A stretch of 64,000 bases of DNA. Source: Candidatus Latescibacterota bacterium (GTDB lineage Bacteria; Krumholzibacteriota; Krumholzibacteriia; WVZY01; JAKEHA01). Both the position numbers and the translations under genes were made by a program. Below are positions 50,843 through 53,680 of the stretch, piece after piece. How positions within the stretch are numbered: position 1 is the stretch's first letter; every line of letters starts with the position of its first letter. The DNA lies in contig OY970173.1 of NCBI GenBank assembly GCA_963707635.1, positions 384,001 through 448,000 on the forward strand, written 5' to 3'. Under the pieces are notes generated by a model. It saw nothing but the letters and a program-made list of their open reading frames with translations. It did not search any database and was not told the origin of the DNA.

Positions 50843-52165
50843 TTACGGCGTCGGAGGAGTGCAGGTGGGAGGCGTCGTGAACGGGCTGGCGTTGAGCCAG
50901 GGGCTCACGACGATGCGGGTTGCGACTGCGCCGGAATCCAGTGAATCGTGAATGGTCCCGTCGATGGTCGACTGCTGTGCCACCGGCGCACCCCAGTAGT
51001 TGCAGCTCGCATCCAATTGAGGCACCGAGACATTCTCCGGGAAGCCATTCTCGAGATAGATGTTCATGACCCCCGTTCCGACTCCGTTGCCGCTGAATTG
51101 ATTGAAGTGAATCTGCGGGAACTCGGCGTGCGAGAGGGTAATCCCGCGCGAGAAGTTGAATTCGATCTTGTTGTACTCGATGACGATCGACGCCGATCCA
51201 CTCGGATCCATGATCGCCATCCGAATTCCGCTGCTGCCGTTGATGCGGAGGTCGCAGCCCCGCACGATCACCGAATCGGGAATCGATGCGAAGGCGGCGA
51301 TGGCGATTCCATCGGCGCGACCGTTGCTGATTTCGGTGTCGATCGCGGTGAGTGATCCAGATCCCTCGACCAGTATGCCGGCGTCGCCGCTGCATCGAAT
51401 CATACAATTCGTCACGACAGCGCTCGCGTTATCACGAAGCCGAACTGCCTTCTGGCCGTATCGAATCTCCGTGTAGTCGAGCTCGATGAGCCCATTGACT
51501 CCGCCAATTGACGTTGCACCACGGATTCCCTCCCACCATCCCCGCTCGTCACCGCACTTGAACGTGCGATCGTTGGCCTGGATGACCACCGGCTCGGTAC
51601 TCGTTCCATTTGCGATCAGCGTTGACCCCGCCACGTCGATGACGGTCCCTGGGACGTCGATGAGCAACTCGGTGCCCGCTTCGATTGTTGTCGTCGTACC
51701 TTCGGAGACCGAGAAGATGGGATTTCCGGCCGGAGGCGACACAATATAGGGCGACCTCGCTTTCACGTAGGACGCGAGTGCGGTCTGGCCACTTGCCGCG
51801 TAACCTACTTTTATTAAAGCAGTTACGCTGCTGCTCACCTGGCCGTCGGAAACCCTGACGGTGAGCGTATCGGTGCCAATGGCGACAGGAGTCGCCCATC
51901 GCACGATGGTCTTCTCCGGATTCTGCGGGGTCAGGGCGGTCTTGTTGGGATCGCGGGTGATCGACCACGTGACGGTCAGGGGATCGTCGTCCAGGTCATC
52001 TACCGCCACCGATAAATTGACCGGTACCCCTCTTACCACTCCGATCTTCGTGAACAGGAGGTCGATGGTCGGTGGCCGGTTGACGGGCGTCACGGTGTCG
52101 CCCCCGCTCGTGCAGCCAAGAGCGACCAGGACCAGAAGGAGAGGCGGCAAGCCGCAAAAACGCAT
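50843..52165 (-). CDS. Lipoprotein with Ig-like domain and right-handed parallel beta-helix
   Basis: Lipobox [18 protein letters not shown] Ig-like start, SPYIV...TIEAGT, NYWG. Confidence 0.75.
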
Positions 52166-52293: not shown

Positions 52294-52309
52294 GATTTCA
52301 CGTGAAATC
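52294..52309. promoter_or_regulatory. parS-like site 1
   Basis: Perfect 16-bp palindrome GATTTCACGTGAAATC; central 12 bp equal the parS consensus core. Confidence 0.8.
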
Positions 52310-52351
52310 TGCCCGGTGGGCCATGATGTGGTCCACTGCTCCCTCGCCTGT

Positions 52352-52367
52352 GGTTTCACGTGAAATC
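52352..52367. promoter_or_regulatory. parS-like site 2
   Basis: GGTTTCACGTGAAATC, 58 bp from site 1. Confidence 0.78.
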
Positions 52368-52383
52368 TCGAAGTCCGTCACGC

Positions 52384-53016
52384 TCACCCTTTTTCGTGCA
52401 TGGTCGGCTTCGGGGTGCCGTACAGCCGAGGGTCGCCATCGAACTTCGCAGCCGTTTCGCTCGAGGCGAAGTAGAACAAACGGCCACCAAATGACCGGAC
52501 TGGGGAGGCATCCGCGGGCTGGAACCGAACCAGGCTTACCGGGTCGGTCACCTTGCCGCAGTAGCGATACGGCGCCGAAACGAAGGTTCTCAACGCCTCG
52601 TCATCTGATACGAAATAGACCTCATGATTCAAGAACGCGCGGTGGGACGCGTCGATAGTCGCGTCGCGGGCGGGATCCACGGCACACTTGAGGTGGGCCC
52701 CCATGTCCAGCAAATACGGTTCCGGACCTTGCACGAAGGTCGCTGCGCAGGGGCTTCAGCAGAACCCAACCGGCTGCCCGTTCACGTAGACCGCCGGCAT
52801 CTTCGGGTTCAGGCGTGTTTTCCTGACCGCACAGCGATCGTTGATGGTCACCAGATTCGTCTCGAAGTAACGCAACCGCGGAAATGAGTCCTCGGGGCTG
52901 ATCACTTCTGCCAGCTCCATGTAGTGGTGCTTGTCCTTGCCCTTCTTGGAACAGGCCGACAGCACCAGCGCCACCAGGGCGGTAATGAGAATCGCTCGCC
53001 AGCGCATCTGAATCAT
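52384..53016 (-). CDS. Putative selenoprotein: lipoprotein with three YHS/TRASH-like repeats, CUxxC motif
   Basis: Track ORFs 52756..53028 and 52384..52734 are one frame split only by TGA 52756-52758 in GFC-TGA-SPC; lipobox LSAC; SD GGAGG. Confidence 0.8.
52725..52741 (-). promoter_or_regulatory. Putative bacterial SECIS element
   Basis: GACCUU-CGUGC-AAGGUC stem-loop beginning 14 nt after in-frame UGA. Confidence 0.6.
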
Positions 53017-53047
53017 GCGGACCTCCAAGAATCCCCTCTAACGCGAG

Positions 53048-53680
53048 TCATGATACCCCGAAACGGTACAACGCGTATCTCCCGTATTCGCCTGAAGTCG
53101 AAGACATCAATGTGAAGGATCCTCGCGCGCCTTCGGGAGTGCTGTCACGAGGAATTGTCGACATGAATCGAGCCCCCGGCAGGAGGAGCCCCTCGATCTC
53201 ACCCGCCATCTCCAGCGGCGCACCGACCGCCATGGTAACCGCCACGGAGTACCGTCTCCGATGTTTTTCCGAACGGGCGGCGGCATACGCTTCGCCGCCG
53301 AATACCTCGACATTCGCCAGGGGAATAGATCGGACGAGGCGCTCGAGGAAGGCTACCTTGCGCTCGCGGCGTTCGATCAGGAGCACCGGCACACTCGGCT
53401 GCAGGATGGCCCACACGGCTCCGGGGAAGCCGGCCCCCGACCCGATATCCACGATCGCATCGCCTGCCGCTATGGCGACGAGACTCTCGATCTCCAGACT
53501 CTCGAGGAGGAGGCGCTCGCAGGTGGCGACCGGGTCCCGACGCGAGACGAGTGCAATCTCGCGCGTCCAGGTCAGAACCTCGGTCAGATACCGGGTGAGC
53601 CCGTCGACGACGGCTGGCTCATACGATGTAACATATTTATTTACAATTAGTTGCGCTGATTCACCGGGGAGTGGTTCCAT
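53048..53680 (-). CDS. rsmG: 16S rRNA m7G527 methyltransferase RsmG/GidB
   Basis: VDIGSGAGFPG, LIE...RKVAFL; follows mnmG. Confidence 0.88.
   Translation of the reverse strand: MEPLPGESAQLIVNKYVTSYEPAVVDGLTRYLTEVLTWTREIALVSRRDPVATCERLLLESLEIESLVAIAAGDAIVDIGSGAGFPGAVWAILQPSVPVLLIERRERKVAFLERLVRSIPLANVEVFGGEAYAAARSEKHRRRYSVAVTMAVGAPLEMAGEIEGLLLPGARFMSTIPRDSTPEGARGSFTLMSSTSGEYGRYALYRFGVS

Follow-up and report, generated by a model that had tools for sequence, protein, structure and literature searches.

The window analysed, i.e. the whole stretch of 64,000 nucleotides, carries on its minus strand one reading frame of 210 codons (52384-53016), in which a single in-frame TGA occupies codon 87. 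The frame starts with ATG (53016-53014) and closes with a terminal TGA stop (52386-52384). A plain list of open reading frames splits this gene in two (52756-53028 and 52384-52734). The preliminary description had regarded both as one frame broken by TGA, and the sequence agrees: the read-through product has 210 residues and contains the lipobox LSAC, C62, C86-U87-x-x-C90 and the repeat ends quoted there. The gene is single-copy in the genome. It lies downstream of rsmG and upstream of a gene encoding an Ig/beta-helix lipoprotein and of parA. The features discussed below are as follows.

52384-53016, minus strand: predicted selenoprotein gene, 210 aa by TGA read-through (reading frame, codon-position pattern)
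52951-53016, minus strand: predicted signal peptide of a lipoprotein, with lipobox LSA-C22 and its Cys codon at 52951-52953 (pattern only)
52708-52842, minus strand: YHS/TRASH repeat 1, residues 59-103, with C62, C86, U87 and C90 (HMM match)
52756-52758, minus strand: in-frame TGA codon 87, putative selenocysteine (TGA/Cys alternation in homologues)
52725-52741, minus strand: predicted SECIS hairpin GACCUU-CGUGC-AAGGUC, 6-bp stem and 5-nt loop (covariation)
52558-52695, minus strand: YHS-like repeat 2, residues 108-153, without Cys cluster (profile match to repeat 3, E 3.7e-6)
52414-52554, minus strand: YHS repeat 3, residues 155-201, D-P-V start, no Cys (Pfam YHS PF04945)
50843-52165, minus strand: gene located between parA and the selenoprotein gene; its product is a predicted lipoprotein that has Ig-like and right-handed beta-helix domains

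We compared the gene with 11 same-genus orthologues on both sides of the TGA. The differences by codon position were 88/33/184 upstream (363 codons) and 315/309/605 downstream (1,056 codons), and this third-position bias on both sides is the pattern of coding sequence. No sigma-70-like promoter was found for the gene.

The selenocysteine (Sec) machinery, on which the preliminary description depended, is present in the genome: selA, selB and selD were all found above curated cut-offs, together with a tRNA-Sec with anticodon TCA. The selD gene (L003, G000:C1:1039947) is itself a selenoprotein gene with an in-frame TGA. RF2 is also present, and TGA terminates both the gene studied here and rsmG; TGA is therefore not reassigned. 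At a broader scale, selA was detected in 56 of 61 related genomes and in 183/201 genomes of the Eisenbacteria set (the 183/201 tally includes the unpublished genome G221). Among relatives bearing the gene, 17/19 have selA, the two misses being 80-85% complete, as do 4/5 further genomes. It was also found in 15 of the 17 genomes carrying a Cys form of the gene, so that losing the Sec trait does not account for the Cys forms. Co-occurrence with selA was rejected as discriminating evidence, selA being near-universal in both groups.

Homologous loci were then read at codon 87. The gene occurs in 19/61 related genomes, and the codon is TGA in all 24 loci read (these 19 plus 5 further genome loci). 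Within its own phylum, 29 of 201 genomes carry the gene, each with TGA at this codon (29/29). Metagenome loci, taken as the best 80 of 253 relatives, gave 76 TGA, 3 TGC (one sequence) and 1 TGT. The Eisenbacteria phylum is more mixed: 127/201 genomes match (G221 again included), and the best 30 loci comprise 12 TGA and 20 TGC genes, one locus being unparsed. Over all 42 parsed genes, 22 have TGA at codon 87 and the remaining 20 have TGC. One locus (L180) has a TGA inside the match although its codon 87 is TGC, and the tally of internal TGA codons was therefore not used as a count. Three loci (L162, L166 and L167) hold tandem pairs of divergent Cys-form paralogues, both copies with TGC. At another locus (L110), a TGT (Cys) form is nested among TGA forms and retains 4/6 stem pairs of the downstream hairpin as well as its CGUGC loop; here Sec has probably given way to Cys recently, leaving a SECIS in decay.

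The preliminary description had expected Cys or TGA at this site. Homologous DNA agrees and never has a Trp codon, but five of the 31 database proteins that span the site depart from it (26 Cys, 3 Ser, 1 Arg and 1 Gly; protein sequences only). The protein with Gly (P0003) matches no fetched locus, and our guess would be a code-25 artefact. Of the database proteins retrieved, 151/204 are fragments from the C-terminal side, and 3 break off at FC. The homologous genes terminate with TAG or TAA, at a position close to that of the terminal stop here; at codon 87, TGA is the only stop codon seen. The case in which the TGA is an error had also been raised. Reads of four runs were placed on 52350-53050, none of which spans the TGA codon, a result that weighs neither way; the TGA is conserved too widely for an error.

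A hairpin with G in the loop had been claimed 14 nt downstream of the TGA, and it is found at 52741-52725, with its loop beginning 20 nt past the TGA and G at loop position 2. Passages of PMC13188914 give the SECIS consensus as an upper stem of 4-16 bp, a loop of 3-9 nt with G within its first two nucleotides and a UGA-to-loop distance of 16-37 nt; the present hairpin fits it with 6 bp, the 5-nt loop CGUGC and a spacing of 20 nt. In 23 distinct sequences, which as kin are not independent, 138/138 stem cells are paired, with 15 double changes. None of 500 shuffles reached that stem pairing, and slid controls were 24-73% paired. Over all full-length loci, a full stem with a G[G/U] loop accompanies 103 of 104 distinct TGA contexts vs. 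1 of 22 Cys contexts. The stem also leaves its mark on the protein. In 88/95 TGA sequences, codon 93 is the exact reverse complement of codon 97, the pairs being of five kinds (GTC/GAC, GCC/GGC, ACC/GGT, ATC/GAT and GCT/AGC); residues 93 and 97 vary as the pairs V/D, A/G, T/G, I/D and A/S because their codons must base-pair. Phe94 is TTC in 95/95 TGA sequences and Gln96 is CAA in 77/79, vs. 44/339 elsewhere in the same genes. Covariation between amino acids is clearly driven here, in a natural gene, by RNA structure. The covariation of codons 93 and 97 can mislead contact prediction, and it can be used to find SECIS elements.

The hairpin is not exceptional by itself. Hairpins of such a type stand behind 54 of the 69,478 genomic TGA triplets (0.08%), including that of the known selenoprotein gene selD, and their rate after TGA is about equal to the rate after five other triplets in this genome. 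Its energy is -6.4 kcal/mol alone and -16.3 kcal/mol with a lower stem (z 0.13 over 59 nt), for a model threshold of -7.5 kcal/mol; by single-sequence folding its stability is not unusual (z 0.60 over 81 nt), and a 40-nt window folds differently. The support for the hairpin is its covariation and not its folding energy. The selD hairpin of this genome has a 13-nt spacer, a 6-bp stem and the loop CGGGA, i.e. the same design shifted by one base. Taken on these sequence comparisons, there is very little doubt that Sec would be inserted at codon 87.

The predicted protein begins with a basic N-region, a hydrophobic core and a lipobox Cys, all recognised by pattern. The lipobox had been part of the preliminary description, and LSA-C22 is indeed present; it is nevertheless a lineage-specific feature, as a lipobox-like Cys recurs in same-genus homologues whereas Eisenbacteria homologues have a signal peptide without lipobox. 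The three YHS/TRASH-like repeats proposed after it are supported by profile matches and by the alignment. Pfam YHS (PF04945) matches the query at residues 175-199 with E 5.4e-6, below the gathering score, and matches 34/34 aligned members at E 0.01 or better. An HMM of the CC-type YHS repeat (C-x22-25-CC-x2-C) matches residues 59-102 with E 2.6e-10, the best of 200 shuffles reaching 9e-4; this HMM was built from hits of the query-family profile and is not fully independent. The family profile also retrieves multi-repeat YHS/TRASH proteins via repeat 1. The direct profile alignment of repeat 1 with repeat 3 is weak (E 0.042).

C62 and C86 are invariant in the 34 aligned members. Repeat 1 departs from the four canonical TRASH ligands (C/D-x-x-C ... 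C-x3-C) in that ligand 2 is absent and a C/U is added at 87; C62, C86 and C90 would correspond to TRASH ligand positions 1, 3 and 4. The TGA does fall within the domain at the place that had been proposed, U87 standing where FCS has its serine or where the CC type has its second Cys. In repeat 2, C111 and C153 are variable in the alignment. A disulfide between these two residues was considered and is unlikely, since they do not co-occur consistently.

AlphaFold2, run on the 34-sequence alignment, predicted three hairpin-helix units with a mean pLDDT of 92 and a pTM of 0.82. Foldseek returned no match at E 0.001 or better and weak ones at E 0.1 or worse. The weak structure matches are di-iron monooxygenases known to carry a YHS domain (best VIA-align Z 2.5), with neither NosL nor MerB among the structure matches listed, an absence that carries no weight against either. 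A sequence search of solved structures gave weak YHS-like matches to adenylate kinase 9/CFAP alone. In the ESM Atlas, a Cys-form homologue used as query matched unnamed clusters at 0.85 or less, with YHS/TRASH in a minority of their members. A search for longer fused forms found none, which is weak evidence.

We then looked at the genes surrounding the different loci. An insertion between rsmG and parA had been proposed and the gene is present there, but a second gene (50843-52165) lies in the same interval and only close relatives keep the position. In these relatives the gene sits at the mnmG-rsmG / beta-helix-parA position or at a variant thereof; in other lineages the neighbours are unrelated. 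The cluster to which the Ig/beta-helix lipoprotein belongs accounts for 25 of the 61 loci examined, all from close relatives. One homologue (L144:4329-10259) is in a heavy-metal island, between a MerR-family regulator gene with a gene for a chaperone of CopZ N-terminal type and CusA/CzcA efflux genes. Among Eisenbacteria, a thioredoxin-NHL gene neighbours 12 loci, and at five related loci a short form described below is followed directly by a gene for a multiheme cytochrome c lipoprotein. The neighbourhoods give no consistent operon-level clue to function. We rejected a functional connection with the NosD-like neighbour, as the hit is a generic beta-helix and the two genes are adjacent in close relatives only. 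MerR control was likewise rejected for the L144 homologue, the MerR-type promoter facing away from the gene.

The exported YHS selenoprotein of the preliminary description is supported by the sequence, but an exported YHS-domain selenoprotein with another Sec site has already been described. This YHS (seleno)protein, NF041384, was first predicted in Olavius algarvensis symbionts (passages of PMC1976440) and is the only YHS selenoprotein catalogued in the parts consulted of PMC1976440, PMC9312934 and the 119-family table of PMC13188914. Both proteins have a YHS domain, a signal-peptide-like N-terminus, one Sec/Cys site and a predicted SECIS. NF041384 has one YHS domain and a distinct C-terminal part, and its Sec lies in G-x-U after the YHS helix, as in the representative MDJ0831626.1 (excerpt of the PMC12013277 supplement); the query, in contrast, has three repeats and its predicted Sec in the FC-U-xx-C knuckle of repeat 1. 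The query scores 13.1 bits against the NF041384 cut-off of 70, and the genome (G000) has no match to this model. Nine related proteins score 17.5-34.4, vs. 135.9 for a true member, and pairwise BLAST of the query with a true member gives E 0.46. No model of NCBIfam 20.0 reaches its cut-off for these nine proteins. In one same-genus genome (G003), which carries at L030 a genuine, Cys-containing member of NF041384 (GGFC), the search found no triple-YHS gene.

The closest resemblance is with CC-type YHS/TRASH repeats (C-x22-25-CC-x2-C; PF04945, PF24273), which repeat 1 matches, and with an exported triple-YHS sister family that has Cys only (P0101, P0157, P0169, P0178, P0187, P0197 and P0205; proteins only). 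The sister family shares the signal peptide and the three-repeat layout. Both groups have Cys where the query has U87, and the sister family, unlike the query, mostly has CC-x-x-C clusters in repeats 1 and 2. A full-text literature search found no functional study of either group. The full-text literature and the catalogues checked, with BSepDB covered by passages without its family table, gave no description of a triple-YHS selenoprotein family; the BSepDB supplement text has 0 matches to YHS, and the families of Haft and Tolstoy 2025 were covered via a review table and NCBIfam alone. The gene is very well supported on sequence grounds, and the family is missing from the catalogues checked. 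It would add a widespread family to the approximately 119 catalogued (table consulted in PMC13188914). The host lineages are uncultured and nearly all have selA (56/61 and 183/201), and public gene calls cut the gene in two.

A FastTree tree was built with codon 87 masked (140 rows, including 7 outgroup rows, from 167 before removal of near-duplicates). It requires 11 changes between Sec and non-Sec forms, with weak deep support. Eisenbacteria also have a short form (L190-L239), which consists of a signal peptide or an Ala/Pro-rich leader, F-[T/S/L]-TGA and then repeats 2-3 only, in open frames of about 120 codons without repeat 1 and C62/C86/C90. Its profile has 62 matches in 61/201 genomes (G221 included). 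The in-frame F-[T/S/L]-TGA was present in 19 of the 20 loci fetched, one copy being disrupted; by genome, TGA is at the site in 34 of the 36 fetched, with one disrupted and one unparsed. The short form has its own hairpin, GGUCCC-GUY-GGGACC, with 98% of cells paired and 5 double changes in 16 sequences, an alignment from which 3 sequences that carry another hairpin were left out. U-S-G-x-G-C occurs in three members, together with a different hairpin. In the structural model, the TGA residue lies in a low-confidence arm (residues 23-45, pLDDT under 50), and a Cys is found near the end of the first repeat in 17/19. The short- and long-form profiles align from residue 94 onward (E 1.6e-30). The Sec of the short form would be homologous to U87, given F-C-U vs. 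F-T-U at 24 vs. 26 residues before repeat 2. If the sites are homologous, Sec outlasted the cysteines, which argues that Sec is the reactive atom. The short form is probably a second subfamily to add.

As to function, we tentatively propose an exported lipoprotein in which C62, C86, U87 and C90 would, outside the cytoplasm, capture a soft metal ion, for instance Cu(I), and hand it on; this is our likeliest reading, though it falls somewhat short of an even chance. SelB-GTP-Sec-tRNA would bind the hairpin and decode UGA87, RF2 releasing an 86-residue stub when selenium is short. The product would be exported and lipidated at C22, and repeat 1 would present three thiolates and a selenolate to the soft metal. 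The selenolate of U87 could be a fast, exchangeable outer ligand or a stand-in for the lost second ligand; repeats 2-3 would be a Cys-free scaffold or a partner-docking surface. The assignment of repeat 1 to the CC-type YHS/TRASH repeats and the heavy-metal island of the L144 homologue both point to metal capture. They are weakened by neighbourhoods that are not conserved across lineages and by an island limited to one locus, with its MerR-type promoter pointing away. Moreover, an oxidising periplasm could convert such thiols to disulfides. Metal sites in TRASH/YHS domains are known: passages of PMC4626032 describe the TRASH domain of ribosomal L24e, which binds Cd via four Cys, and the YHS domain of the Mycobacterium phlei adenylyl cyclase, a probable Cu sensor. 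Ligand positions 1, 3 and 4 of these sites align with C62, C86 and C90, but the sites are cytoplasmic, and the query has Arg/Lys for ligand 2 and Sec at the serine position of FCS; the same passages also report YHS domains without bound metal, e.g. in toluene monooxygenase. The CU dipeptide is rare, and its occurrences concentrate in heavy-metal systems, according to parts of Haft and Gwadz (bioRxiv 2022.07.06.499078). SaoB, SaoC, SaoL and HgcA, which are partly exported lipoproteins proposed to bind heavy metals, likewise have a vicinal Cys-Sec replacing CC (same parts of bioRxiv 2022.07.06.499078), although their folds are unrelated and their operons conserved, unlike the neighbourhood of the query. 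Finally, repeat 1 has no second TRASH ligand, 5/31 database proteins have Ser, Arg or Gly at 87, and a fixed four-ligand site does not explain a short form that keeps TGA without C62/C86/C90; the Cys forms common in selA-bearing genomes (15/17) imply that Sec is not essential to the family.

Several of these observations would suit an envelope redox catalyst, which we consider rather doubtful. U87 would cycle with C86 or C90 through a selenenylsulfide, reducing peroxides or shuffling disulfides, with a partner bound by repeats 2-3. Both U-x-x-C and vicinal C-U are motifs of redox type, and the selenoproteins catalogued in the table seen of PMC13188914 are mostly redox proteins. In the short form, the TGA residue is on an arm predicted to be disordered and a Cys mostly stands close to where the first repeat ends; this is consistent with such cycling, as are the multiheme cytochrome c and thioredoxin-NHL neighbours. 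But these neighbours are lineage-specific and their loci close kin; the fold is YHS/TRASH and not thioredoxin, and the motif is inherited from the CC-x-x-C repeats of non-enzymatic-looking repeat proteins. It is unlikely, more so than redox catalysis, that repeat 1 is simply held by a structural Zn site or two bridges, with Sec near-neutral for Cys and the actual job, ligand or partner binding, in repeats 2-3. This would account for the intermixing of Sec and non-Sec forms on the tree (11 changes/140 rows), for the Cys forms in selA-positive genomes and for the invariant residues of repeats 2-3 that both forms keep. The upkeep of the SECIS, however, constrains residues 93-97 at the amino-acid level, a cost implying selection for Sec, and the short form retained TGA with a different hairpin after the loss of repeat 1. 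Least probable by far is that the TGA is a real stop, whether between two small genes, in a pseudogene, through an assembly error or under a reassigned code (TGA read as Trp or Gly). Databases do list the halves separately, a GTG at codon 95 is a possible start for the second half and one database protein has Gly at the site. Against this, the TGA falls within a domain, is replaced by Cys codons in homologues and has a covarying hairpin tied to it; RF2 is present, genes including this one end in TGA, and a true stop would drift among the three stop codons.

A wider form of the metal-capture proposal appears rather improbable to us. The family would form a selenium-based metal-capture system in the envelope of soil and sediment bacteria, with Sec as the working atom of a TRASH site. 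Equally improbable as part of it, Sec would be so important that one lineage dropped the entire Cys domain but retained the selenol on a flexible arm (F-T-U), for which a new SECIS evolved. If so, a single-selenol carrier would hand Cu, Hg or electrons to envelope partners. The predicted Sec is in any case in a metal-finger-type site of a predicted exported protein and not in a thioredoxin fold. Since natural Sec, Cys and Ser variants exist, it can be tested directly what selenium gains over sulfur in such a site, on a protein that is small and confidently folded in silico.

Finally, two perfect palindromes TTTCACGTGAAA are found just downstream of the selenoprotein gene, at 52296-52307 and 52354-52365, about 1.5 kb from parA/parB. 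These are just the two exact copies in the genome, and 1 of 100 shuffles reaches two. We take them to resemble the parS consensus.
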